64,000 bases of DNA from an uncultured Gammaproteobacteria bacterium (GCA_965230895.1 OZ246394.1:29723-93722), one strand, 5' to 3'; shown: positions 3,204 through 39,748, counted from the stretch's first letter. Notes: generated by a model not told the origin, from the sequence alone. Program-made: numbers and translations.

Positions 3204-3290
3204 GTTTGTCATGCTGAGTTTATTTCAGCATCCCCAATTAATAGCTTTCAATGTGAAATCCTGAATAAGTTCAGGATGACAGTGTATTTT
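3204..3290. repeat. double-hairpin intergenic repeat element, copy 1
   Basis: Two perfect hairpins (CATGCTGA..TCAGCATG; ATCCTGAAtaagTTCAGGAT); about 85% reverse-complement match to 39671-39748. Confidence 0.5.
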
Positions 3291-7959: not shown

Positions 7960-9192
7960 ATGAAATATTCGAAATTATATATCAAAACAAGTAAAAATGT
8001 GCCATCTGATGAAACTGCTAAAAATGCTCAGCTCCTCATCCAAGCGGGTTTTGTTTACAAAATAATGGCTGGCGTTTATGCTTATTCGCCACTTGGTTTG
8101 CGAGTGCTTGAGAATATCAAAAAGATTGTTCGAGAAGAGATGAATGCAGTTGATGGTCAAGAGCTGATCATGTCGAGTCTTCAAAATCCTGAAACATGGA
8201 AAATTACAACAAGATGGGATGATGATGTCGTCGATGTGTGGTTCAAATCAAAACTGAAAGATGAAACTGAAATTGGTCTTGCCTGGTCTCATGAAGAGCC
8301 AATTATGGAGATGATGCAGCATGTTATTACAAGTTACCGTGATCTTCCAACAAGTGTCTATCAATTCCAAACCAAACTTCGAAATGAATTGCGTGCAAAG
8401 AGTGGAATCATGCGCGGACGAGAATTTGTCATGAAAGATATGTATTCATTGCATGCTTCAGCTGAGGATCTGGACAAATATTACAACGAAGTAATTGAGG
8501 CATACAAGAAAGTCTATGATCGGTTAGGTTTGGGAGAGGACACGTATGTTACTTTCGCAAGTGGTGGTGCATTTACCAAGTTTAGTCACGAATTCCAAAC
8601 TATTTGTGAAGCTGGAGAAGATATCTTGTATCTACATCGAGGGAAGAATATTGCTGTCAATGAAGAAGTCCTTGATGAAGCAGTTAAAGAGCTTGGCATC
8701 GATAAAAAGGATCTTGAAAAAGTGAAGAGTGCAGAAGTTGGTAATATCTTTAACTTTGGTACGGAAAAAGCAGAACAAATGGGAATTACATTTACAGATA
8801 AAGAAGGTAAGCAGCAACCAATTTACCTTGCCTCATATGGTATTGGAATTACACGTGTCATGGGAGTTATCGTTGAGAAATTTGTAGATGAGCGAGGCAT
8901 TGTCTGGCCTGAAAATGTCGCTCCTTACAAAGTGTATTTGGTTTCAATTAAAGCAAATGACAAAGCAGAGAAGTTATATAAAAATCTTCAACAAGCTGGA
9001 GTAGAAGTTCTTTATGATGATCGCGAAGATGTGGGGCCTGGTGCGAAGTTCGCAGATGCAGACTTGATTGGAATTCCAGTAAGATTGGTTGTCTCACCAA
9101 AAACAGAAGAGAAAGTTGAATGGAAAAAAAGAACAGAAAAAGAATCAGAATTAATCAGTGTCGAAGAAGTCCTCAAACGCTTGAAGAAGTAA
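7960..9192 (+). CDS. proS: prolyl-tRNA synthetase, short form lacking the INS editing domain
   Basis: Class II motif 2 'FQTKLRNELRAKSGIMRGREFVMKDMYSLH', motif 1 and C-terminal anticodon-binding domain; 410 aa. Confidence 0.9.
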   Translation: MKYSKLYIKTSKNVPSDETAKNAQLLIQAGFVYKIMAGVYAYSPLGLRVLENIKKIVREEMNAVDGQELIMSSLQNPETWKITTRWDDDVVDVWFKSKLKDETEIGLAWSHEEPIMEMMQHVITSYRDLPTSVYQFQTKLRNELRAKSGIMRGREFVMKDMYSLHASAEDLDKYYNEVIEAYKKVYDRLGLGEDTYVTFASGGAFTKFSHEFQTICEAGEDILYLHRGKNIAVNEEVLDEAVKELGIDKKDLEKVKSAEVGNIFNFGTEKAEQMGITFTDKEGKQQPIYLASYGIGITRVMGVIVEKFVDERGIVWPENVAPYKVYLVSIKANDKAEKLYKNLQQAGVEVLYDDREDVGPGAKFADADLIGIPVRLVVSPKTEEKVEWKKRTEKESELISVEEVLKRLKK

Positions 9193-9990
9193 CTAGAATA
9201 AGAACGGTAAATTAAATACTTTAATCCAAAAAACTGTATAAATCGCAAAGAAAACTACTGCACCTACAATATACAAAACCCGAAGTAAGGATGATGCTTC
9301 ATGAGGTGCGTTTGCTTGAGAAACTTCAGCAGGTGAAGGCAATGGCTGTGTGAATACTTGCGCTTGGGGTTCTCCTGGCGCAGGATTATACGGAGTGACA
9401 GGTGCCATAGGATCTGCATCTGGCGTTTGATTCGAAGAATCAAGTGATGAGAATGCCTGTGGAGATGCCATTTCAGGTTGAGATGGAGTTTCTGAAGGCG
9501 CAGGATTATTGAAAAAAGCAGACGGCGAACTGCTCGGAGTAGCAAGACTTGATGTTGGTTCGGATGGTATAGGAGAAGGCTCATTCGTCGCAAAAAGTGT
9601 TGCTGAAGGATCAGTTGTTTCAGGTGAAGTTGGCGATGGTTGTCCAAAAGGATCATTCATTGGGGGCATTGCTGGTTCTGTCGGCATGGGATTTGAAAGT
9701 GTTGGATCTGTGATCGGAGTTGCTGACGGTGATGTCGACAAAACATTATTTGGATCGCTAGTATTAATGAGCGGATCAGTAGCTGAAGCTGAAAGACTAC
9801 TTGCCATAGGATCTGACGGCATTGCTGTATCTGCCGGTGTCGGTGTATTCACCGGAGTATCTGTCGGAGTTGTCCCTGATGCATCGTGTGCCACACCCAT
9901 GATTCGATCATAAGTTTCGCGTGCTTTCGGGTCAAGGTGATTAAGGGCTTTTGGATCCATAAGGTCTCTTTTAATCATCCCATTTTTCAA
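9193..9990 (-). CDS. Pro/Thr/Ser-rich protein with C-terminal TM anchor
   Basis: 265 aa, long low-complexity PT/PS tract, C-terminal 'LYIVGAVVFFAIYTVFWI' hydrophobic segment. Confidence 0.5.
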   Translation of the reverse strand: MKNGMIKRDLMDPKALNHLDPKARETYDRIMGVAHDASGTTPTDTPVNTPTPADTAMPSDPMASSLSASATDPLINTSDPNNVLSTSPSATPITDPTLSNPMPTEPAMPPMNDPFGQPSPTSPETTDPSATLFATNEPSPIPSEPTSSLATPSSSPSAFFNNPAPSETPSQPEMASPQAFSSLDSSNQTPDADPMAPVTPYNPAPGEPQAQVFTQPLPSPAEVSQANAPHEASSLLRVLYIVGAVVFFAIYTVFWIKVFNLPFLF

Positions 9991-10086
9991 ACTTTATTGT
10001 CAAGGGTCAGCGGAATGTACCATTGGGGTAGAGAACCGGAATGTCAGGTTAACACTAATACAGTTTGTTATAATACGTCCTATTAG

Positions 10087-28826: not shown

Positions 28827-30128
28827 ATGAGCCATCCTGAATCAAGACCAAATGGAGATCTGCGTTTCCAACGTACCTCATTTCGTGGAGAAGAGGCTTT
28901 GCCTCCACTTCCAGCAAAGATAGTAAGTCCTATCGAAGATAAGAAAGGCTTAGGTATCTCTTCCAGATTCAATGATCATAGATCTATCAAAGAAGGTCGA
29001 CGGATGCCACATACGAGGGTTACAGTTCAACTGCAAGAGGTTCCATTGATAGGAGATTTTGGTCATGTAGGATGGAAAAAAGGAGATACATCGACGAATA
29101 TGTTATCAACACATCCTGAGCTTGTAATAGATATGGTTGATCAAGGTCCTCTTGCATTGGATAAAGTCATTGCTGAAGGAGAGGATGTTACCGTCAATAC
29201 CGTCCATCTGCAAGATGCTCCCAAACCACATGTCGAATCTCCGCACGGATTATATATCATGCAAGTTGATGCAAAAAATGGTTTATTCCGTATGCATGAT
29301 GTTATCCCTGTTATTGCGGTTGATACAGCTACAGGTATAATGGATCAACCTTCTTTGGAAAAGCCTGAGAATGTCTATAATCTTCCTAATAGTGCTACTA
29401 CAATGGACGGGTTTATTTATCAAGGACTTAAGATAGCCGATCAGGTTCCAGCTGTCCATGATGTCTTCACCAATTTAGGATTTTCGTGGCAAGAATCTCT
29501 TCAAGTAACCCGTCCGGCCCCAACAGAACTTGTTAAACGAATGGATATGCTTCGTGAAACGGATACATCTTCAGGTCTCTATTATCCGGAATTAAAAGTA
29601 TTGCCAGTAGGAGATATTCCTCCTCAAGGATACCTAGAAGCTTATGCTGAGAATAAGTATCCTTTTGCTGCAAAAACATTTATGCATTATGATCACGATA
29701 TACCTTCTCACCATTTAGCTGCTTACATGGTATACGGTGAAATGGCTATGGATGTCTCAGTCCAATATAGTAGAGCAATCCTTGAATCAGACTACGCTAC
29801 ATTTGGCTATCTACCACATTTGCAGGGTGTTCCATTTGAAGGTGAGGCACGGCTTGGACATGCAGCATACGTAAATGATATTTTTACGACAGATTTAGGT
29901 AATATGGATTTACACGGTGAAGGTAGAGGGTTTGGTGTGTATGCAAATGTCCATAGCGATATAGTCAACACGCTTAAACAATCAGGCCGGCTTGGGGAAT
30001 TGAAATTAGTAGAATGGATGCAAGAGAATGGAATGGTGCGAGATTATATGGATATGACGGGTGAGGATCTGTTACAGGGTTTACTCGCTCAGTCTCGTGA
30101 ACGGTTGCTACAACCGCAAGGAGTTTAG
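28827..30128 (+). CDS. island leader-family protein, paralog of 37533-38717
   Basis: 'RFQRTSFRGEEALPPLPAKIVSPIED'; shares 'DTSSGLYYPE...LP...YLE[AS]YA..K[YH]P' and C-terminal blocks with the 37533 gene. Confidence 0.6.
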   Translation: MSHPESRPNGDLRFQRTSFRGEEALPPLPAKIVSPIEDKKGLGISSRFNDHRSIKEGRRMPHTRVTVQLQEVPLIGDFGHVGWKKGDTSTNMLSTHPELVIDMVDQGPLALDKVIAEGEDVTVNTVHLQDAPKPHVESPHGLYIMQVDAKNGLFRMHDVIPVIAVDTATGIMDQPSLEKPENVYNLPNSATTMDGFIYQGLKIADQVPAVHDVFTNLGFSWQESLQVTRPAPTELVKRMDMLRETDTSSGLYYPELKVLPVGDIPPQGYLEAYAENKYPFAAKTFMHYDHDIPSHHLAAYMVYGEMAMDVSVQYSRAILESDYATFGYLPHLQGVPFEGEARLGHAAYVNDIFTTDLGNMDLHGEGRGFGVYANVHSDIVNTLKQSGRLGELKLVEWMQENGMVRDYMDMTGEDLLQGLLAQSRERLLQPQGV

Positions 30129-30130
30129 TT

Positions 30131-31156
30131 ATGAGAGAAATCAATGGGCCAAGCGAGTTTCCAGCTATAGGGGCCTTTCAACAAGGGGAAGTCCGTCCAG
30201 CGCTCCCAAAACATATTGTGAGCGCTGATAAAGCAGGGACTAGTCATCCAGTACCTGCCAGAAAACAAGCCTCAATAGTCGAAGGTTACTTTGGTCCAAC
30301 TTGGAAAGATAGAACTGTTGCGAAACTTGTCAGTGAGAAAATGGTTAGAGAAGGAGTCGTAGATGAAAGAAACACTCCAGCTGGTGAGAACCCAAAATAT
30401 TTTACACTCTACGATTCTCCTTTAGAAAATACTGATTCCGAATCTTCTTCAAATGAAAATAATGGTCAACCAGCTTCTTATGGAAAAAGTTTTGAAGGAA
30501 TACCCCCTGATTATAAATCATTGAAAGAATACCTTGATGAATCCCTCCCCGAGCATCCCGTAGGTATCGATATTGGCGGAACAGGGAGTAAACTATTTCG
30601 AGGGTTTGATAAGCCTTTTGCCTTATCGCTTGGTCTCACACTTGTGGATAGGCGTGATCCTGCTACGCAACAATTGGATGCAAGCAGAGGCCATGGAGTT
30701 ATAGAAGGTGATATCCAATCAAATGCAGTGAAAGAAGCTGTGAAACGAAGCTTGGATGGTAGACAAGCTGATGTAATGTTCCTTCGTATGGGTGCTGGAG
30801 CAGATTACTTAGAGCAGAATCCTTATGCAATGGCAGACCATTTCAATGATTATTATCAGTTTCTTTCAGCTCAAAATGGGAAAATGTTTGTCGAAGTTCC
30901 TAAACTTCTTCTGCCTTTAACAAAGCAGTGGACATGGAAAGTTGGGACTGAGTTTGAGGGAAGGTTAGGCATAGTAAGCTCACCTTATTTAGAGGGATAT
31001 CTTGAACTCGAAAAACTCCCTGACGCACCAGAAGATATTCGAGATACCATGCTTCCGGCTCGCGATGTACGAGATACATATGATGTCTTTTTCGGTAAAA
31101 AGTTTAGCCAAGAGCGTTTTGAAAGAATCATTCTTGGGAGACCTTTGCGCCATTAA
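30131..31156 (+). CDS. island leader-family protein with GxGxG-containing domain
   Basis: 'PAIGAFQQGEVRPALPKHIVSADK'; 'VGIDIGGTGSKL' Rossmann/ASKHA-like glycine loop; operonic (3-nt gap). Confidence 0.5.
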   Translation: MREINGPSEFPAIGAFQQGEVRPALPKHIVSADKAGTSHPVPARKQASIVEGYFGPTWKDRTVAKLVSEKMVREGVVDERNTPAGENPKYFTLYDSPLENTDSESSSNENNGQPASYGKSFEGIPPDYKSLKEYLDESLPEHPVGIDIGGTGSKLFRGFDKPFALSLGLTLVDRRDPATQQLDASRGHGVIEGDIQSNAVKEAVKRSLDGRQADVMFLRMGAGADYLEQNPYAMADHFNDYYQFLSAQNGKMFVEVPKLLLPLTKQWTWKVGTEFEGRLGIVSSPYLEGYLELEKLPDAPEDIRDTMLPARDVRDTYDVFFGKKFSQERFERIILGRPLRH

Positions 31157-31298
31157 TATCAGTTCATTGCATTACATTTGGGTCTTGATACAACTGGTCG
31201 AAAAAGTATTCCACACGCTTTAACAATGGTATATCGTCCTCAAAAGTAGTCATCGTAATTCGACGACAGCTTTACTTTATGTGTTATACTACGTCATT

Positions 31299-32990
31299 AT
31301 GGCAGTACACAATGAATCATTCGATGGGAGTAGACAGTCAAAAGAAATCCGCCCAAGATCTTTCTCACAAGAAGCGACCGATGCACCTCCACCAAGAGTA
31401 AGAAGAATTGTTTCTCCAGACAAAGTTGCTGAATCAAGAGCTTTATCGAAACCAAGGCAAATTTTTCCATCAGTTACTGGAGAGACGACAAGAAGAGTTA
31501 GCCCTATGGACCGAGACGAATCGCCTGAAATTCATGCGTCTATTCCTCAGGACCAGATACCAGAAGAAGTTAAAACTCAGAACCAACCAATTCCACCTTC
31601 TGATCGATTGCCTCGTGATATTGTACAGCCTGATGAGATTGGAATACGTAGAGAGCCTAGAGATGAAAGAGTGCTTCCAAATGAACCTCATGACGAGCAG
31701 TCTCCTCAAGGAGACAAATTAGAGAAACTCGGGACGTACAGAAGAATAAGTAGATCTGCACGAGCAATTTATAGTTATCTTGAAAGAGTAGATGAGGCTG
31801 AAGAAACAGTAAACCAATATGGAGAAGTGCAACGTACTGCTTCGTGGAGTAATACATTGCGGGATGGAGACAGAATCACAACAATTACTTCATATCATCT
31901 CACGACTGACGGAAGCCTCGAGGGTTATGATGATAGATTAACACTAACAAGAAAAACCACGAATAGCATGCCTGACGGGGGGAGAATAATACGTGATACT
32001 TCATGGGTAATGCTTGGTGAAGGAACAGTGGTTGATTATGGGATTACGATAGCAGAGCCACCAGCAAAACTTCGTGGGACAACTGGTCCTGACGTTCCAG
32101 GTCCACGACATGCACTTCCAGAAGTAGAACTTCCTGGACAGAGAGATCCAGTAAGTGATAGTTTTCCTACTATTGGCAGAGCAGAACGATACGAGCCTCT
32201 CCAAGAACATAATGAACGGGTAGAACGAGGCGATCCTCGTGAAGGTAATGTTACGACTGCAGGAAGAGATGAGTTGATACGAATTCTTGAAGAACGAGCA
32301 GAAGGAACAATATTCCGAGTCGAGCATATCACCGAAGCTGCAGGTAAAGGGCCCGTAACCCTTGATAATCGTGCTCACGCGGCAGTACTCGGCACAAGTC
32401 TTGATGAGGTAATTGAGCTGATTCGTACAGGTGTGTTGAGAGAAACAGGTCCGGAGGATATTCATGCCGTACCTACACGAGTGTTGGAACCTGTCATCCA
32501 AACATTCAGTTCGGCTGCATCAAAACCTATACTTGATGCTCTTGAAGATCCAGCAGCAAGAGCTGAAGAATTGGGAGTAGCTGCTGGAAGAGATGCTCAG
32601 CTCCACGCGGCAAATAAAGCGCTTGGTTTGCCAATTGAAGATACAAGATTAGCTGGCTGGTTAGAACAGGCCGGAGCAGCATCTGATATTCCGGAAGAGC
32701 TTGGGTTGGCTACTGGCAGAGCAAATGCTGTTTATGAAGTCGCAAAGGAACGAAAAGGCTTTCTTCTTGCTATCGGAAATGCTGCCGCTCGGGCTAACGA
32801 TTTGCAAATTGCTCCCGGTGAACAAGGTGATTTTTCCGTACGTTTCCAAACAGGAGAAAATGGATTGCTCTATAAAATGATTTCAGGAATTCAGGCACTT
32901 GGACCTCAGGAAGAGGAGTTTATTAACGATTTGAGAACATCAAGAGATATCCAGGCTGTCCTCACAAAATGGGAAGCACCCATAGCATAA
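31299..32990 (+). CDS. island leader-family protein
   Basis: 'MAVHNESFDGSRQSKEIRPRSFSQEATDAPPPRVRRIVSPDK'; 'tgtgttatact' 8 nt upstream of ATG 31299. Confidence 0.6.
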   Translation: MAVHNESFDGSRQSKEIRPRSFSQEATDAPPPRVRRIVSPDKVAESRALSKPRQIFPSVTGETTRRVSPMDRDESPEIHASIPQDQIPEEVKTQNQPIPPSDRLPRDIVQPDEIGIRREPRDERVLPNEPHDEQSPQGDKLEKLGTYRRISRSARAIYSYLERVDEAEETVNQYGEVQRTASWSNTLRDGDRITTITSYHLTTDGSLEGYDDRLTLTRKTTNSMPDGGRIIRDTSWVMLGEGTVVDYGITIAEPPAKLRGTTGPDVPGPRHALPEVELPGQRDPVSDSFPTIGRAERYEPLQEHNERVERGDPREGNVTTAGRDELIRILEERAEGTIFRVEHITEAAGKGPVTLDNRAHAAVLGTSLDEVIELIRTGVLRETGPEDIHAVPTRVLEPVIQTFSSAASKPILDALEDPAARAEELGVAAGRDAQLHAANKALGLPIEDTRLAGWLEQAGAASDIPEELGLATGRANAVYEVAKERKGFLLAIGNAAARANDLQIAPGEQGDFSVRFQTGENGLLYKMISGIQALGPQEEEFINDLRTSRDIQAVLTKWEAPIA

Positions 32991-33047
32991 ACTATACTGA
33001 ACAATTACCGTTCTCATGCAAGGCTAAATGTGGTAAAATACGCCTTT

Positions 33048-34568
33048 ATGGAACTTGATAGAAGAGGTTTTGATAATGGAAAACCAGTAGGTAATGAAAC
33101 ACAGGGTTCATTTGGTCCCGGAAGTTCTGAATCCGTACCGGCAAGAACTCGGAAAGTTGTTTCCCCTGATAAAGTTGCAGGAAGAAACCGTCCAACTCCA
33201 GTGAGAAGACCTGTGGATCAAACTCCCCAAGAAACCCCAAGAGCATTTTTCAATATTGCGGAAAGATTAGGCTATCTTAGCCCTGAAGTTTGTTCTCTGC
33301 AGAGGGCACTTGATGCTGAGACCATTGACGTCGAACCAGATGGTGATGAAACAACTCCAGTACCGACAGCCTTAGACAATGTTATTGATCGGTTGGGCGG
33401 AGCGTTTACATTTGAAGCGCAGGCATTGCAGAGAGCAATGCTTCCTTCCGTGCCTGAACCTCCTGCACTTCCTGTAGCACCGAGTTCCAATAGACCGGCA
33501 ATCGAAGCAGTTGTGGGTAGTTTGGGAGGGAGTGAAACACCTGAAGCACAAGCACTATGGCGAGCCAACGAAGCTTCTGTACTGAAACCAGAAAGTAATG
33601 CTGAGCAATTGCCATTGCCTGAACACGGTGTCGATAAAATTGCTCCATTTGTTCAGACACATGGAAAAATTCACCCATCAGGAAGCTACCATAGCAATGC
33701 GAGTTTTGAGAATATAGACTTATACGTCAATCCGAGTACAGGTGATTTTATCGTAGTTGGTAATCAGCGAGCAAGAACAAAGGAAGATGATCCCACTACT
33801 GACTATGTAATTATTGATCCAGGAACAGGTACTCCTATAGCAGAGCCTGCTCGAACAATATGGCGCGTTAGCGAGAATTGGGTTGATACAAATGTAGGTG
33901 ATGAACGGAAAATGAAAGTTGTGGCAGCAGAAGATGCGGAAGTTCCTAATTGGCAGGATCGATTAAGATTTACAGAACCATATAAAAGATTTGACATTAC
34001 AGAACAACTTCCTACTCTGACTCCAGACGCATTGGTTGATCTTGCTGGTAGCATGGTTACTGATGGTGTACAACCTCGACTTGCACTGCGAGGTGTCATT
34101 GACGATGCTCGTGCGCAAGGCCATCAACCAAAACCAACAACGCCTCTCCGAAGTGATTTCAAGAAGAGTACCTTAAACCAACCGGAATACGCTCGACTCA
34201 ATCAGGTGCGAGTGGGACTTAACGCAACAGTACGTTTAGTTTCTTCGCTTATTCCTCGATCCGTTTTAGAAATGGAACAGCAATCATCTATTACTGACGC
34301 GCTCAATTTTGCTGCAGACGGATTTAAGAAAGAAGATTTTGCTGATTACAGCTATTGGACCGATGATCCCAAAACTGTTACAAATGTAGATATTGAAGAC
34401 GCACGTAACGCAGTGCGTAGATCACATGGCGAACTTTGGCAGCCAGAATCTTCGCCTAAGCAAACTATCATTGAAAATTACTTTGAGTACCTTATCACCC
34501 AGGCTGAAGCAAATGGGGGATTCATCACTGCTGATAAGATAAATGCAAAATTACTCAGCAGTGGATAA
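33048..34568 (+). CDS. island leader-family protein with internal 'LGG...EAQAL.RA' repeats
   Basis: 'MELDRRGFDNGKPVGNETQGSFGPGSSESVPARTRKVVSPDK'; 'tgtggtaaaat' 8 nt upstream. Confidence 0.6.
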   Translation: MELDRRGFDNGKPVGNETQGSFGPGSSESVPARTRKVVSPDKVAGRNRPTPVRRPVDQTPQETPRAFFNIAERLGYLSPEVCSLQRALDAETIDVEPDGDETTPVPTALDNVIDRLGGAFTFEAQALQRAMLPSVPEPPALPVAPSSNRPAIEAVVGSLGGSETPEAQALWRANEASVLKPESNAEQLPLPEHGVDKIAPFVQTHGKIHPSGSYHSNASFENIDLYVNPSTGDFIVVGNQRARTKEDDPTTDYVIIDPGTGTPIAEPARTIWRVSENWVDTNVGDERKMKVVAAEDAEVPNWQDRLRFTEPYKRFDITEQLPTLTPDALVDLAGSMVTDGVQPRLALRGVIDDARAQGHQPKPTTPLRSDFKKSTLNQPEYARLNQVRVGLNATVRLVSSLIPRSVLEMEQQSSITDALNFAADGFKKEDFADYSYWTDDPKTVTNVDIEDARNAVRRSHGELWQPESSPKQTIIENYFEYLITQAEANGGFITADKINAKLLSSG

Positions 34569-34614
34569 GACTTTTTAATAGAAAAGTCTTATAGTTTGTG
34601 GTAAACTACACGTG

Positions 34615-35835
34615 ATGCCAAATAATAGAGAATCATTTGAAGGTAAGCATCCTGCAGGAGACGTCAGTAGGTCCTTTGGTCCGACTACTCCCGACGGATC
34701 TCCACCACCGCTGAGAAGAATTGTTTCTCTTAATAAAGGAGAAAGAGGTGGGTCTGTATCCGCTATGGGTATTGATAATGGTAGTATTGATGTACCAGTG
34801 ACTCCCCAGTGGTGGAGACAGCCAAGTGCACAGAAAGAGAACGACATACAAGCCAATCCAGTTGTAGATTTTGCACTTAAGCATGTTGAATCAGTTGATG
34901 ATCTCCATGCTGAAACAGTCGAAGACGGTGCAAAGAAATTAGAATCAATAACGTCTTCAGCTCTTCGTAATATATCACTTGGAGAACCAGTAGGCGTAGG
35001 AGGTATATTTGATGTTCATACTATTCCTGGAGAACCTGACCTCGTTGTAAAACGCTTAAAAGCTCAGCAAGAATATGTAACTGTCGCTGAGGCAGACGAA
35101 GGGTTTGAAAAGCTTAGAGCGCAGCATCAAAAGTTTGTAGAAGCCTTCGGAGCTGATCACGTTCCTGCAACACAATTTGCAAAAATTGAGGATACGGATT
35201 TTGGAGATGCGCATAGGATAGCGCTTAATGGAGGAGAAAATGCCTTTTTTGCAGGGAGAGAATATGTAATGGTCCAAGAGAAATTGAGAGGTCTCCAATA
35301 TCAAGGAGTAACTGAGGATACTGAAGCCACCTTAAGAGATGCTGTGCAAGGATCAAGTGAAACAATGCGAGATCAAGTCAGAAGTTTTATCGAAAGATAT
35401 CGCCAATCACCGGTTCATCCTGATACAAATCAAGTTGTTTTTGATTTTACAGATGAGAAGGTCAGCATTGTAGACACCAATGCACCTTCTTCTACTACTT
35501 ATTACACTCACTTAAATTCCTATCTGCAAAAACTGGATATTGATCCAGCAAGTATAGTAAGTCAACAGCAATTAGCAGATGTAGTAATTGCAAATGTTCC
35601 TGAATTTGCGCATTTACAAGGAAGACCATGGGTCGAAATACGAGATATACTTCGCCCACGGTCAAGCCTACCCGCTAAAGCAGAAGCCGCAATCAATAAA
35701 AAATACAAACATGAAGGACCTGGCTCTGAGGGGTATGGTGACGATATGAATTTCTTATTGAGCGGGCTTGAAGATTTTCCGCCAGAGGGTGATAACAGAT
35801 ATGTTAGGACGTTAATTGATATATTTAGACTTTAA
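34615..35835 (+). CDS. island leader-family protein with protein kinase-like signatures
   Basis: 'MPNNRESFEGKHPAGDVSRSFGPTTPDGSPPPLRRIVSLN'; 'LVVKRLK' (beta3-Lys-like), 'VHPDTNQVVFDF...VSIVDTN' (HxD..N catalytic-loop-like plus metal-binding D). Confidence 0.5.
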   Translation: MPNNRESFEGKHPAGDVSRSFGPTTPDGSPPPLRRIVSLNKGERGGSVSAMGIDNGSIDVPVTPQWWRQPSAQKENDIQANPVVDFALKHVESVDDLHAETVEDGAKKLESITSSALRNISLGEPVGVGGIFDVHTIPGEPDLVVKRLKAQQEYVTVAEADEGFEKLRAQHQKFVEAFGADHVPATQFAKIEDTDFGDAHRIALNGGENAFFAGREYVMVQEKLRGLQYQGVTEDTEATLRDAVQGSSETMRDQVRSFIERYRQSPVHPDTNQVVFDFTDEKVSIVDTNAPSSTTYYTHLNSYLQKLDIDPASIVSQQQLADVVIANVPEFAHLQGRPWVEIRDILRPRSSLPAKAEAAINKKYKHEGPGSEGYGDDMNFLLSGLEDFPPEGDNRYVRTLIDIFRL

Positions 35836-35883
35836 GATTGTAATTTGTGATCATCTTTATTATCATTCATCAATGTTCTATGC

Positions 35884-36012
35884 TTGATATACTTAGCTCA
35901 TGAAAAATTATAGTTACGCATACCTCTCCAGATTGGAACGCAATTACCTCCATTTAGCTCTTAAAAAATACTTGGCTGGAATGATGTCAAGTTCAATTAT
36001 TTAAACCAGCAG
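35884..36012 (+). pseudogene. degraded duplicate of the DHH phosphoesterase 5' end plus upstream region
   Basis: About 85% identical over about 130 bp to 38748-38880; reads MKNYSYAYLSRLERNYLHLALKKYLAG..* versus MKIIVTHTSPDWDAITSVWLLKKYLAGW. Confidence 0.6.
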
Positions 36013-36120
36013 ATATTATTCCCAGCTATTGATAATTTCATCCTTAAAGATATATTAGAAATCGTGTAAAGGTAACCCAAATTGACTAGAAATATCTTAT
36101 AGTTTGTGATAAACTATAGT

Positions 36121-37494
36121 ATGGCTATTGGAGAATCTTTTGATAGTAGAAGACCCTCAAATGGTGAGACAGGCGGAAGATCATTTAGTGCGTCTATTCC
36201 AGAGGGGACACCTCCACCTTTGCGAAAAGTTGTATCGCCTGATACACGAGGAACTGGTGGGATTTCCCATGCTGCAAGACGTGTTGTGCCTCTTCCATCT
36301 CCTGACAGAGGTTATACACGGAAACATACAATACCTGCAGAAATTTCCGGAAGTGATATTACTGTTCCTGTTATTCCAACTACAGATACTTCGCCTCCAG
36401 ATCCCAAGCCCCGTTATGTACAAGAAAGAGAATTAGGTCATACTGTTACGTCAGTTCGTAAAGATGCCCAAGCCGTTGCAAGGGGAGTAGTCAGAGGAGT
36501 TGATCCAGAGAATGAAATGGGAGCAGCTGAAAGAACGAAATTATTCAATGATGAATGGAAGAAGATAGCAAGACAGAATGATGGTTTTGTTCAAGCCAGA
36601 GATACTTTAGCAGCTGGCCGTAGTGATGCTGCTCAGTTTACAGCCCATACTCACGCTTTTGATCCAGATACGCGTCCTGATCTCGAACAAGCTGCATCGC
36701 TTGGCGTATTACAAGCTGCTGAGAATTTCGATCCTGAGCGGTCTCAAAACTTTTTTATGCTTGCTTCTTTATCAGCTCAAAGTGAAGTTAACAGTGTCAT
36801 AAGAGGACAGCATCCCATCCATGTACCTCAACATGTTTTCCCAGAAAGAAAACAAGTACATACCGTAAATGATGTTTTAACACAAGAGCTACAAAGAGAA
36901 CCGACTGCACAAGAGATTGCAGAGAGAATGCATGAAGGATCTGATACTGATATCGATCCTGAGCGTGTAAGGTTATTGCTTCATTCTCCGGTATTTGATA
37001 GACATTTAATTCCTATTGGGACGAGTGATGTAACTGAAGGTTATCCAGTAGTTGATGAGGAGACTTTGCCGGATCAAGGCCGCCCAGTTGAAGACCACGC
37101 ACTTGATCAAGTGGAACTGCAGGGATTGATCGACAATGCTGGACTAACAGAGACAGAGGCATATGTACTTTTTCAACGATACGGGGAAGATCGGGAGAAT
37201 GGAGATATTGGTCAAGAATTATTTTATACTCCCCAAAGTATATCTCTAATTTCTCATGTAGCATTAGCAAAAATTAGAAACGCTGCAGGAATTCGACCTG
37301 ATGAAGAATCTTCTCGTAAAGGACAGCCTGCATCCTCAGCAGTCCTACAACGGAGAGCAGAATATTTACAACAAATGCGAGAACTACTCGATCCAGAAGA
37401 TCCAAAACCAAATGTGAAAGAATTAGCTGAGCAATTAGGAGTTTCTTTACGGACAGCATATAACTATTTAAATGAAATTAGGAGAGATCAATAA
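36121..37494 (+). CDS. RpoD-like sigma-70 family sigma factor with island leader and degenerate region 2.3/2.4
   Basis: Leader 'MAIGESFDSRRPSNGETGGRSFSASIPEGTPPPLRKVVSPD'; region 2.1/2.2 'FDPERSQNFFMLASLSAQSEV'; region 3 'IHVPQHVFPERKQVHTVNDVLTQELQREPTAQEIAERM'; region 4 'LTETEAYVLFQRYG...ELFYTPQSISLISHVALAKIRN'. Confidence 0.7.
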   Translation: MAIGESFDSRRPSNGETGGRSFSASIPEGTPPPLRKVVSPDTRGTGGISHAARRVVPLPSPDRGYTRKHTIPAEISGSDITVPVIPTTDTSPPDPKPRYVQERELGHTVTSVRKDAQAVARGVVRGVDPENEMGAAERTKLFNDEWKKIARQNDGFVQARDTLAAGRSDAAQFTAHTHAFDPDTRPDLEQAASLGVLQAAENFDPERSQNFFMLASLSAQSEVNSVIRGQHPIHVPQHVFPERKQVHTVNDVLTQELQREPTAQEIAERMHEGSDTDIDPERVRLLLHSPVFDRHLIPIGTSDVTEGYPVVDEETLPDQGRPVEDHALDQVELQGLIDNAGLTETEAYVLFQRYGEDRENGDIGQELFYTPQSISLISHVALAKIRNAAGIRPDEESSRKGQPASSAVLQRRAEYLQQMRELLDPEDPKPNVKELAEQLGVSLRTAYNYLNEIRRDQ

Positions 37495-37532
37495 CTCATT
37501 TTAGAGTCTTATAGTTTGTGTTAAAATAGCCT

Positions 37533-38717
37533 ATGGCAATAAATAGAGAATTTGATGGGAGAACTCCAATCGGAGGAGCTGAAAGAACTTTTAGCTCGGG
37601 CGTGGAGGGTGCACCACCGCCAGTACAAAGAATTGTTTCTTTACCGCAAGATGGCGCTGTCCGTGGGCGTCAGGAGCGAGAAGGTTTTTCATTTACGACA
37701 GTTACTGTGGCAGATGCTCAAAATAAAACCTTATTTCGTGGCAAGATGGCACCTATTCAATGGCAAGAACCTCAGCATACTGCAGCAGTACACACAACGC
37801 ATCCTGAAATAATGGCTTCAGTCTTTGCTGAAGGTCCTGCTGCTTTTGACAAGCTTGATACAGATGGAGTGTTGCAAGTAACGTCTGCGGATAGTCATGT
37901 CTTGCGTAGTTTTTGGTACGACAGTGATCGGCAGCTCGTGACAGTAGCTCGCGGGGTAGTTTTTTTCAGAGAAAAGATGGCTGAAGAAGATGTTGCGCCA
38001 ATTGAATTACCGTCTCCTCCAAAAGGAAGTTCTAATTCTCCTATTGAGATGAGTTCTGCCGTGGAATTTGAATTTAAAGAATCACCCCTATATAGAAAAA
38101 ATCCAAGGATACAACAATCCTTTGCTACATTGGGATTTGATATGGACGAAGCTCGAAGAATATTTCCAACACCCAAGAGTTTTGCTGCAACGTTAGACCA
38201 GCTTCGAGAGGCTGATACTTCAGGTCTTTATTATCCTGAAGTATCACTATTGCCAGTAAGCCAGATTGATGCGAAGCCTTATCTTGAATCCTATGCAGCG
38301 GGGAAGCATCCTGTCGGTACTCATGGTTTTTATCATTACACACATGATACATCTTCTGATCACGCTGGGACGCTTATGACATTTGGCAAAAATATGATGG
38401 ATCTTATCCAAGGATATTCTCAAGTCATTTTGGAACGAAGAGGTGATACAGTAACATTTGCAGATACAGAACCTATAGATATGTTTACTGGTTTGGCGGG
38501 GCTTGAGGATTTAGATGATATAAATAACATAGTTCCTCATCGTATCGTGCGCGCTCTAGAGGATGCTGATCGTTTAAAATCCACGAAGATAGCTCAATGG
38601 ATGCATGCAAAGGGTATGATCCATCGTTGGGATGAGCTTACCCCAGAAGTCCTTTCTCAAGGGCTTCGCGCGGAAGCAAAAGCGAGATTACATGATTACA
38701 ATAATGGAAGAAGATGA
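37533..38717 (+). CDS. island leader-family protein, paralog of 28827-30128
   Basis: 'MAINREFDGRTPIGGAERTFSSGVEGAPPPVQRIVSLPQDG'; shared blocks with the 28827 gene. Confidence 0.6.
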   Translation: MAINREFDGRTPIGGAERTFSSGVEGAPPPVQRIVSLPQDGAVRGRQEREGFSFTTVTVADAQNKTLFRGKMAPIQWQEPQHTAAVHTTHPEIMASVFAEGPAAFDKLDTDGVLQVTSADSHVLRSFWYDSDRQLVTVARGVVFFREKMAEEDVAPIELPSPPKGSSNSPIEMSSAVEFEFKESPLYRKNPRIQQSFATLGFDMDEARRIFPTPKSFAATLDQLREADTSGLYYPEVSLLPVSQIDAKPYLESYAAGKHPVGTHGFYHYTHDTSSDHAGTLMTFGKNMMDLIQGYSQVILERRGDTVTFADTEPIDMFTGLAGLEDLDDINNIVPHRIVRALEDADRLKSTKIAQWMHAKGMIHRWDELTPEVLSQGLRAEAKARLHDYNNGRR

Positions 38718-38763
38718 GCTATCGGAGCTTTGTTTTCGAAGCAAGAATTGATATACTTAGTTC

Positions 38764-39672
38764 ATGAAAATTATTGTTACGCATACCTCTCCTGACTGGG
38801 ACGCAATTACTTCCGTTTGGCTTCTTAAGAAATATCTTGCTGGTTGGAATGATGCTGAAGTTCGATTCGTGCCAGCAGGGAATAGACTGTCCGGACAGCC
38901 AGATCCATCAACGACCAAACACAAAGGTGAAGATCCGATTGAACGAATTGGTGATGATGAGATTATCCACGTTGATACAGGACTTCTTCCATTAGACCAT
39001 CATCAGATTCAAGACACAAATGTCTCTGCAGCATCTCTTGTATGGGATTATGTTCGTGAGCAAATTGCTCACGCAGGACATCTCACTTCAGAGCACGAAG
39101 AAGCTGTCTCTCGAATTGTCAAAATTGTTGTTGCTACTGATCACTTCAAAGAAGTTTTCTGGCCAGATGCTGCAGCCGATCGGTATGAATTTGCTTTTCT
39201 AGGACTGCTTGATGGCATGAAACTTGTAAAACCAAATCAAGATGTAGTCTATCTTGAATTTGGTATTACATGCCTGAATGCTATGACCGCACAATTTGAA
39301 AATCGCATCTGGGCGGAGCGAGAGATTGAACAAAAAGGAATAAAATTCGATACTCGATATGGCCAAGGGATCGGATTTGAAACAATTAATGATACTGTCT
39401 TGAAGTTGGCTCAAAAGATGGGATTTAAAGTGGTTATCCGTAAGGATCCTCGAAAGGGTTATGTCCGTATAAAGACACTTCCAGGAACGGAAAAAGATAA
39501 AGGTGCAGATTTGACCCTCGCTTATGAACAATTACGTAAAATTGATCCAGATGCTACATGGTTTTTACATATTTCCAAGAAAATGTTATTGAATGGTTCT
39601 CCAAAGAATCCCAAAATGCGTCCAACGAAATTAAGCTTGAAAGAGATTATTAAAGTGGTGGAGAGGGTTTAA
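38764..39672 (+). CDS. DHH-family phosphoesterase (NrnA-like)
   Basis: 'TSPDWDAITS' (DxD) and 'LLPLDHHQ' (DHH) motifs; 302 aa. Confidence 0.8.
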   Translation: MKIIVTHTSPDWDAITSVWLLKKYLAGWNDAEVRFVPAGNRLSGQPDPSTTKHKGEDPIERIGDDEIIHVDTGLLPLDHHQIQDTNVSAASLVWDYVREQIAHAGHLTSEHEEAVSRIVKIVVATDHFKEVFWPDAAADRYEFAFLGLLDGMKLVKPNQDVVYLEFGITCLNAMTAQFENRIWAEREIEQKGIKFDTRYGQGIGFETINDTVLKLAQKMGFKVVIRKDPRKGYVRIKTLPGTEKDKGADLTLAYEQLRKIDPDATWFLHISKKMLLNGSPKNPKMRPTKLSLKEIIKVVERV

Positions 39673-39748
39673 ATGTTAGTGTCATCCTGAACTTGTTTCA
39701 GGATCTCTAATTAAAGATGCTGAAATAAATTCAGCATGACAAATTCAT
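39671..39748. repeat. double-hairpin intergenic repeat element, copy 2 (inverted relative to copy 1)
   Basis: Reverse complement aligns to 3204-3290 with one roughly 13-bp indel; hairpins ATCCTGAActtgtTTCAGGAT and GCTGAAataaaTTCAGC. Confidence 0.5.

Follow-up and report, generated by a model that had tools for sequence, protein, structure and literature searches.

How did a piece of a core gene come to lie 2.86 kb upstream of the gene itself? In the Levybacteria (CPR) genome studied here, a decayed copy of the 5′ end of a DHH-family gene precedes the intact gene, and the two copies bracket exactly a leader-tagged sigma gene and the gene at 37533 (g37533), as a reading made from the sequence alone had described. 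That reading took the arrangement as the footprint either of single-crossover integration of a circular cassette or of site-specific integration into the 5′ end of the gene. We analysed the whole stretch of DNA concerned (hereafter the window), which makes up 64 kb of a roughly 1.6-Mb contig. Rather than pointing to a mobile element, the fragment is most plausibly an ordinary recombination scar, left once at the margin of a rapidly changing gene island.

A decayed second copy of the DHH 5′ end

The decayed copy (A) and the copy at the start of the intact gene (B) (Table 1) are identical at 102 of 114 aligned bases (89%) in a local alignment with five indel events, and 84.3% identical over 121 columns when gaps are counted. 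Their alignment score was 139, compared with 17.5 ± 2.3 for shuffled sequences (maximum 32), and self-BLAST returned the pair as the top non-self match of the entire window. The 23-mer that opens the repeat occurs exactly twice in the window, where chance predicts 0 occurrences. Copy A was also found by an nhmmer profile of 76 orthologues (E = 1.2e-16) and by a protein profile (E = 8.8e-10). The partial duplicate is real: its identity of 84–89% lies above the 70% that the sequence-only reading had set as a lower limit, and the match is not that of a generic promoter.

The edges of the repeat are sharp, with similarity ending abruptly both upstream and downstream, in copy A after 35998 or 36012. 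A 7-mer, CCAGCAG, is common to both copies at a 3-nt offset (36006–36012 and 38872–38878) and agrees with the slightly longer end points, 36012 and 38880, given earlier. Copy A is 115–130 bp long and covers the DHH promoter and the first 35–39 codons or so; it contains the −10-like box TATACT, an ATG at 35901 and the remnants of about 35 codons. Self-BLAST and DNA and protein profiles of the 76 orthologues revealed no other DHH 5′ remnant in the window, and the profile searches found none at the approximately 14 other gene junctions or at the left edge of the island. A search of the whole window against Rfam gave no match, and the DHH 5′ region thus corresponds to no known RNA element.

Table 1. 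Features of the DHH locus (positions in the window)
Feature	Position	Strand	Remarks
Lineage-specific island, ~28.7 kb	10000..38747	+	From minus-strand conserved gene 9193–9990 to DHH promoter
Leader-tagged g34612, 406 aa, directly left of copy A	34615..35835	+	Only leader in common with module genes
Copy A, truncated decayed DHH 5′ fragment	35884..35998, possibly to 36012 via CCAGCAG	+	84–89% identity to copy B
Unique spacer, end of copy A to sigma promoter motif	36013..36081	+	Proposed illegitimate joint at its left end
Shared promoter motif TCTTATAGTTTGTG.TAAACTA	36082..36116	+	Other copies at 34574–34608 and 37494–37528; family D1, 74–86% identity
Leader-tagged sigma-70-family gene, 457 aa, first of module	36121..37494	+	Sigma70 r2/r3/r4; SigB/F/G-like, E = 2e-18
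Leader-tagged ORFan g37533, 394 aa, second of module	37533..38717	+	Distant paralogue (28% identity) of gene 28827–30128
Copy B, functional DHH 5′ end	38748..38867, possibly to 38880	+	16 nt upstream plus codons 1–35
Intact DHH-family gene, 302 aa	38764..39672	+	Conserved core gene of Levybacteria

Compared with copy B, copy A carries an extra A directly after the ATG, which shifts the frame, a TGG>TAG stop and four deletions, so that one copy is intact and the other decayed, as had been noted. The frameshifted remnant reads MKNYSYAYLSRLERNYLHLALKKYLAGMMSSSII* (35 aa); the frameshift had been recognized correctly before, but the end then quoted (…YLAG*) is not what the sequence encodes. All non-synonymous, nonsense and indel differences that outgroups can polarize are derived in copy A (four of the five substitutions were polarized, CGA>CAA being ambiguous), and copy B has at least one derived synonymous change. 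Codon 8 is ACC in both copies and in none of about 30 inspected orthologues, which indicates that both copies come from this species-level lineage. Third-position differences between the copies (6/11) are not in significant excess (binomial p ~0.12, by hand); such an excess, were it significant, would suggest allelic divergence predating the event.

An assembly chimera of two strain alleles was ruled out, because the frameshift, stop and deletions of copy A are unfit for a functional allele and because the junctions are reproduced in five independent assemblies. Five Logan contigs from separate runs (L001, 35076–41379, covering both copies; L083, 30976–37685; L084; L085; and L086) cross copy A and its junctions at 100% identity to the window. 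Exact-protein look-ups with the DHH protein, g34612 and g37533 led to 11 contigs; each of them matches the window at 100% identity and has the same arrangement, and no variant lacking the module was among them; the arrangement around g34612 was identical in four contigs.

The first 20 nt of the repeat, from the −10-like box through the ATG, differ at one position, and differences are fewer in the 5′ half (5 over 62 columns) than in the 3′ half (12 over 59). This pattern would be consistent with a fragment kept for its function, in which copy A, as a DHH-type promoter with a 35-codon ORF, would drive or tune transcription into the sigma gene. Such a role would explain why the fragment persists, not how it arose, and it is doubtful, given that the contrast between the halves is not significant (p ~0.07, estimated by hand) and that the sigma gene has a promoter motif of its own just upstream.

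The island and its border with the DHH gene

Orthologues of the DHH gene are present in 75 species at 44–93% identity (homologues, n = 1621). The Pfam DHH match of the 302-aa ORF is weak (E = 3e-5, below the gathering score). The gene order aaRS – small gene – DHH – HIT – S21 – YbeY – DnaX is found in about 70 Levybacteria species. In relatives, the class II aaRS, the small gene and the DHH gene are separated by 12 nt to a few kb; across the roughly 70 species, the aaRS–DHH interval varies between 12 nt and over 10 kb, and here it measures 29.6 kb. Each of the closest relatives (L008, L009 and L087) has its own set of unrelated ORFans in this interval, spanning at least 10 kb. The interval before DHH is a hot spot that holds wholly different lineage-specific ORFan arrays in close Levybacteria relatives. 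It resembles in this respect the flexible (‘additive’ or ‘replacement’) genomic islands, whose content between two core genes differs completely in close relatives while the flanks are syntenic. However, those islands are a general concept and not a defined system, and here the island genes all carry a lineage-unique N-terminal tag.

The two-gene module and copy A sit at the right end of the island, and the module is native to it. The N-terminal tag is common to 15 island genes, both module genes included, and is absent from other public proteins: a profile of the tag matched only 13 proteins among 1.84 billion representatives, two of them bearing identifiers of this genome's proteins and all 13 having the lengths of island ORFs. 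The module genes also have their promoter motif in common with g34612; the promoter and leader motifs of g34612, the sigma gene and g37533 are spaced 1508 and 1412 nt apart. Each gene has its own promoter. A simple promoter and terminator scan gave the same counts as expected from shuffled sequence.

A search with the sigma protein returned only itself and weak RpoD matches. Orthology of the sigma gene with the sigma-like genes beside DHH in L090 and L009, or with the gene at 27992, was rejected for want of meaningful similarity. The product of g37533 found only itself among 5.8 billion proteins and had no Pfam match, and nothing of the module was found in viral contigs. As the module genes have no homologues elsewhere, the donor cannot be traced. 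For g34612, the sole homologue in JGI metagenomes is 24% identical, untagged and on a contig with unrelated context. A PDB sequence search and PADLOC on the DHH and module genes gave nothing useful.

The left edge of the repeat falls between TTGA and TATACT, the latter being the −10-like box that Levybacteria keep 7–12 nt before the DHH ATG, and it coincides with the island/core boundary, 16 nt before the ATG. Similarity to relatives around DHH starts at 38749–38752. Taken together, these positions indicate that g34612 and g37533 adjoin DHH sequence at one and the same border between island and core. The loci of the 75 species and six further contigs of the closest DHH homologues (about 80 genomes in all, those with islands at this site included) contain no second DHH 5′ copy.

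Alternative routes to the repeat

Site-specific integration, one of the two routes suggested earlier, would have a tyrosine or serine recombinase insert one or more 2.7-kb modules at an att site overlapping the DHH 5′ end, with A and B as attL and attR and with the cassette bringing a replacement DHH 5′ end. Direct repeats do surround a discrete module (A and B flank 36013–38747), the target gene is restored, and the site before DHH is variable across the clade; attL/attR islands and prophages likewise have a partial duplicate of the end of the target gene bracketing the insert while the target stays intact. However, Pfam scans of all window ORFs of 120 aa or longer detected no domain of an integrase, transposase or recombinase, in agreement with the earlier statement that no integrase is present there; a recombinase encoded outside the window might still act in trans. 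The module also has no mobility genes, and its proteins recur nowhere beyond this genome. It is of the island's own gene type, sharing with its neighbours a promoter motif and the tag unique to this lineage, and its repeats are 11–16% diverged with indels. Furthermore, there is a single scar in this island and no second DHH 5′ copy in the related genomes, and the lineage-specific synonymous state shared by A and B means that an ‘att mimic’ would need a same-species source. We therefore regard site-specific integration as unlikely.

Two other kinds of mobile element were rejected. A transposon or IS with target-site duplication does not fit a duplication of 115–130 bp (not 2–14 bp) with neither a transposase nor terminal inverted repeats at the module ends. 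An integron gene cassette does not fit either, as there is no integrase, the cassette junctions have no inverted repeats and each gene has its own promoter.

A small ectopic duplication is another proposal, in which about 130 bp of the DHH start would have been copied, for example by template switching or patch repair, into the g34612–sigma spacer of a pre-existing gene order, with nothing inserted between the copies. It needs neither a second haplotype nor DNA transfer, and the fragment would partly explain why this intergenic gap is unusually long (285 nt vs 38–57 nt for the neighbouring gaps). Nevertheless, the left end of the copy lies within a few nt of both the island/core boundary and the −10-like box, which would be a coincidence for a random patch and is expected if a gene–DHH junction was carried along. 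About 60 nt of extra unique sequence (36013–36065) would still need explaining; the spacer resembles neither downstream DHH sequence nor any other part of the window. On balance, we give this proposal a low probability.

The roughly periodic motif spacing and gene sizes would be in keeping with a tandem segmental duplication, in which a unit of about 2.86 kb with its end within DHH was doubled and the two gene copies then diverged. Whole-unit homology is missing, however: only promoter and leader are common and the gene bodies are unrelated. Both g34612 and g33030 have only the leader of about 40 aa in common with g37533 and the sigma gene; the relative of g37533 is instead the gene at 28827, and that of g34612 is an unrelated protein without the tag. 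In addition, the promoter and leader DNA of the sigma gene and of g34612 (36087–36261 vs 34579–34752) is 69% identical over 180 nt, less than the 84–89% of the unconstrained DHH fragment, so the genes diverged long before the DHH duplication. A tandem origin is thus highly improbable.

A proposed recombination between island variants

Copy A is probably the scar of one recombination event, anchored by homology and independent of an integrase, in which two variants of the island from the same species took part. We infer two alternative right ends of the island, one in which g34612 directly preceded DHH and another in which the sigma gene and g37533 did, and the event would have joined them. In both configurations the border between the island and the DHH promoter would have lain at an identical position, 16 nt ahead of the ATG, and the conserved DHH 5′ end would have served as the homologous anchor. 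The other joint would have been illegitimate, fusing DHH at about +104 to +117 to a point some 108 nt ahead of the sigma gene's start codon, so that DNA would have been added, not replaced. Afterwards, selection would have kept the intact copy while the truncated one gained its frameshift, stop and small deletions. Neither of the proposed parental arrangements was found in any genome or contig searched.

Two routes would give this outcome, neither with any part for a dedicated integrase. The first is homology-facilitated illegitimate recombination (HFIR) of a linear fragment, for example after uptake of conspecific DNA (de Vries and Wackernagel, 2002; Prudhomme et al., 2002; both as cited in PMC5361080). 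Consistent with this route, copy B runs on without a break into DHH and the syntenic core, and at the opposite end lies a new joint without homology, next to a unique spacer. Near that joint, the one shared stretch to be seen is CCAGCAG. The second is a Campbell-type single crossover in which the incoming fragment is circular and has about 130 bp of DHH. As in Campbell integration, direct repeats of exactly the homology segment flank the insert and one gene copy is truncated and the other complete, although no circular form, plasmid or replicon functions were seen here. Of the earlier proposals, recombination through DHH 5′ homology therefore stands and site-specific integration is disfavoured, while a Campbell circle is indistinguishable from linear HFIR. 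The footprint is likewise symmetric as to the direction of insertion: it could equally have arisen if g34612 and a DHH 5′ fragment had been added on the left side of a sigma–g37533–DHH arrangement already in place.

HFIR has been proposed to create ‘sequential displacement’ arrays in T6SS effector–immunity, Rhs and CDI loci (PMC5361080). There, as here, a conserved segment beside a variable region acts as a one-sided anchor, DNA is added, a truncated leftover stays and no integrase is involved. In those loci, however, anchoring is by the constant part of the effector or toxin gene, and series of orphan 3′ ends or immunity genes accumulate. Here an unrelated gene of housekeeping type provides the anchor with its 5′ end, there is one scar, and the route is deduced from a single genome.

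A broader possibility is a process of cassette capture without an integrase that builds and reshuffles the tagged-gene array, sigma factors included, and that regularly uses the DHH 5′ end as its right-hand anchor. Copy A would then be the sole visible scar, older ones having been lost to deletion bias (copy A itself shows four deletions vs one insertion), and it may have been co-opted as an extra promoter before the sigma gene. We think it improbable that the locus works in this way. The earlier conclusion of island growth through modular insertions at the right boundary generalized from this single scar, and the other junctions and the left edge carry no further remnant.

To our knowledge, the creation and exchange of such ORFan arrays by ultra-small CPR genomes are poorly understood. 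The repeat alone is a small piece of genome archaeology; more broadly, it is useful for marking the locus, where it pins the island/core boundary to the nucleotide. A single recombination between conspecific variants would mean that at least one change of gene content here came by DHH-anchored recombination, within the species and without a mobile-element integrase. Given more conspecific genomes, the scar would offer a ready test of additive vs replacement recombination.

A decayed duplicate of the DHH 5′ end

Comparison of the window with itself by BLASTN revealed that its strongest non-self match in 64 kb links copy A, a decayed DHH fragment, to copy B, the 5′ end of the intact DHH gene (84.3% identity over 121 columns, E 3e-26). 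Local alignment gave 102 matches in 114 aligned columns with five indel events, and a score of 139 against 17.5 ± 2.3 for shuffled sequence. The intact ORF gives a weak match to the DHH domain. In copy A, an additional A directly follows the ATG, a TGG>TAG change creates a stop and four short stretches are deleted; the frameshifted ORF of this copy reads MKNYSYAYLSRLERNYLHLALKKYLAGMMSSSII*. Exactly two genes lie between the copies, a sigma-70-family gene and the ORFan g37533. The sequence-only reading was therefore right that the two stretches are real paralogous DNA flanking this two-gene module and nothing else; the frameshift it described also stands, although the actual remnant ORF is slightly longer than it had read. 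The similarity ends abruptly at both edges, apart only from the 7-mer CCAGCAG, shared with an offset of 3 nt, which accounts for the slightly longer end points (36012/38880) first proposed. Logan contigs L001 and L083–L086, assembled independently from several runs, match the window at 100% identity through copy A, copy B and the module between them; therefore, the arrangement is not an assembly artefact.

Several independent Logan contigs end at identical points (L004, L006 and L007 at 39709; L001 and L002 at 41379), which may reflect strain variation or repeats at these positions. Position 39709 falls inside a short two-hairpin intergenic element, TGTCATCCTGAACTT(GTTCAGGAT)...GATGCTGAAATAAATTCAGCATGACA, present in two copies; in the DHH–HIT copy the first hairpin is incomplete. 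The element could be terminator-like or a miniature repeat element.

Features of the window around the DHH locus and its island
Feature	Position	Strand	Description
Two-hairpin element, DHH-distal copy	3205–3281	−	
Class II aminoacyl-tRNA synthetase	7960–9192		counterpart of the gene 5′ of DHH in relatives
Small gene	9193–9990	−	counterpart of the gene next to the synthetase in relatives
Tagged gene starts (approximate)	10087, 13118, 14575, 20474, 22231, 23121, 25038, 27992, 28827, 30131, 31299, 33048, 34615, 36121, 37533	+	
Tagged sigma factor, first	14560–15417	+	
Minus-strand island genes	16943–20815; 15418–16881	−	only two inside the island
Direct repeat in tagged gene 25038–27833	26902–26958; 27009–27066		58 nt, 86% identity
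g34612	34615–35835	+	leader-tagged, immediately left of copy A
Copy A	35884–35998		decayed DHH 5′ fragment
Sigma-70-family gene	36121–37494	+	ATG at 36121; SigB/F/G-like
g37533	37533–38717	+	ORFan, 394 aa
Copy B	38748–38867		16 nt upstream of ATG to about codon 35 of DHH
Intact DHH ORF	38764–39672		302 aa
Two-hairpin element, DHH–HIT copy	39680–39743	+	

The interval before DHH and the island

The DHH protein was found in 75 species-level relatives, most labelled Candidatus Levybacteria or Levyibacteriota (Patescibacteria/CPR group). On the 3′ side, the order DHH–HIT–(hydrolase)–S21–YbeY–DnaX is kept in nearly all of them; on the 5′ side, DHH is preceded in most by a class II aminoacyl-tRNA synthetase, frequently with a small minus-strand gene in between. 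Synthetase and DHH lie between 12 nt and a few kb apart in relatives and 29.6 kb apart in the window, where a block of about 28.7 kb (~10000–38747) has been added directly before DHH. Nucleotide similarity to relatives begins at 38749–38752, exactly at the left edge of the repeat (TTGA/TATACT, the slash marking the edge), and TATACT is a −10-like box kept 7–12 nt 5′ of the DHH ATG across the clade. Such a box (TATACT, TATAAT or TAAACT, often with TG just before it) also lies about 7–15 nt 5′ of the ATG in many island genes, as in DHH here (38752–38757) and in relatives; judged from sequence, this short spacing suggests that mRNAs of the lineage have no leader or a very short one.

In the closest relatives for which long flanks are available, L008, L009 and L087 (93%, 85% and 84% DHH identity), DHH is preceded by 10 kb or more of plus-strand ORFans, none of them related to the island genes of the window; thus, the pre-DHH interval is a hot spot whose content is replaced completely between close lineages. 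These arrays (L009:62–9952, L008:1643–9955, L087:395–9945) have recurring N-termini of their own, MA(V/A)E...P.G(R)(S/T)LD...LP.V.K in L009 and M(T/V/I)ER(R)P.... in L008 and L087, and include HTH- and sigma-like proteins, which suggests a clade-wide, fast-diversifying locus of tagged proteins.

In the window, fifteen plus-strand genes with unrelated bodies, two of them sigma factors, share an N-terminal tag of about 45 aa (consensus roughly M..NRESF..P.G...RSF.....PP...RIVSPD), and the three rightmost (g34612, sigma and g37533) share a promoter motif. An exhaustive search of 1.84 billion representative proteins with the tag profile gave only 13 matches; two bear identifiers of proteins from this genome, and each of the 13 has the length of an island ORF. 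Against a 5.8-billion-protein collection, the module genes are ORFans. Taken together, the tag, the promoter motif, the confinement of the tag and the ORFan status show that the bracketed module is native to the lineage's island and did not come from elsewhere.

The body of g34612 has a full-length, 24%-identical homologue without the tag in a core-gene context of another uncultured bacterium (L093:7668–9179, JGI contig Ga0265340_10000116), which indicates that the island genes are fusions of the tag with recruited domains. Of the two minus-strand island genes, that at 16943–20815 encodes a protein of 1290 aa whose ATPase domain is of the HerA/DUF87 type (Pfam E 1.3e-5; PADLOC mad8 E 4e-12), putatively machinery that may handle the tagged proteins or DNA; the other encodes a 487-aa ORFan. 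The direct repeat listed in the table lies in a gene for a 931-aa tagged protein.

Origin of the duplicate

Codon 8 is ACC in both copies, a synonymous state absent from all inspected orthologues, so both copies stem from this species-level lineage. Where outgroups allow polarisation, every non-synonymous, nonsense and indel change is derived in copy A (4/5 substitutions; CGA>CAA is ambiguous), and copy B shows one or more derived synonymous changes; these differences fit decay of A. The share of third codon positions (6 of 11 coding substitutions) hints at some allelic divergence that was already there, but is not significant (p ~0.12, by hand).

At g34612 as at g37533, the junction with a DHH promoter falls on the same nucleotide. 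In the simplest reading, the island once had two alternative right ends, '... g34612/DHH' and '... sigma-g37533/DHH', and the present genome would be an out-of-register merger of the two. One joint would be homologous, within the DHH 5′ end. The other would be illegitimate, a site some 108 nt 5′ of the sigma start codon being joined to DHH around position +104 to +117. The merger could have proceeded from a linear fragment, by homology-facilitated illegitimate recombination, or from a circular one, by Campbell-type single crossover; both routes leave one and the same footprint, which is equally silent on which side was the newcomer. At T6SS, Rhs and CDI loci, the linear route has been put forward to explain displaced-fragment arrays beside conserved anchors (PMC5361080), and the corresponding anchor in the window would be the DHH 5′ end.

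Of the origins offered by the sequence-only reading, recombination through DHH 5′ homology is supported, with the Campbell circle as one of two fitting routes, whereas site-specific integration into a gene 5′ end is disfavoured. In line with that reading, which saw no integrase in the window, none of the window ORFs of 120 aa or more contains a domain typical of integrases, recombinases or transposases. The module has no mobility genes, the event does not recur in about 80 related genomes, and a module copy was not found elsewhere, viral contigs included. It is possible that a short piece from the DHH start was copied ectopically into a pre-existing g34612–sigma spacer, but the match between the fragment's left end and the island/core boundary would then be accidental. 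It is also conceivable that the fragment was kept as an extra putative promoter for the sigma gene, its first 20 nt being nearly intact.

Tandem duplication of a gene together with the DHH 5′ end was rejected: g34612 and g33030 have only the leader in common with g37533 and sigma, and the promoter-plus-leader DNA of g34612 and sigma is 69% identical, more diverged than the unconstrained DHH fragment (84–89%). DNA and protein profiles (76 orthologues) revealed no further DHH remnants in the window, and the proposed growth of the island by repeated insertion at its right boundary, which rests on one scar, is not supported.

In summary, the observation is confirmed and its first interpretation supported in part. 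The feature is of an ordinary kind, a recombination scar or a partly duplicated gene where a variable island ends, and is in itself modest; what is unusual is its setting, in this organism and beside a lineage-specific gene array. The uniquely tagged gene array and the pre-DHH hot spot are more remarkable than the scar.
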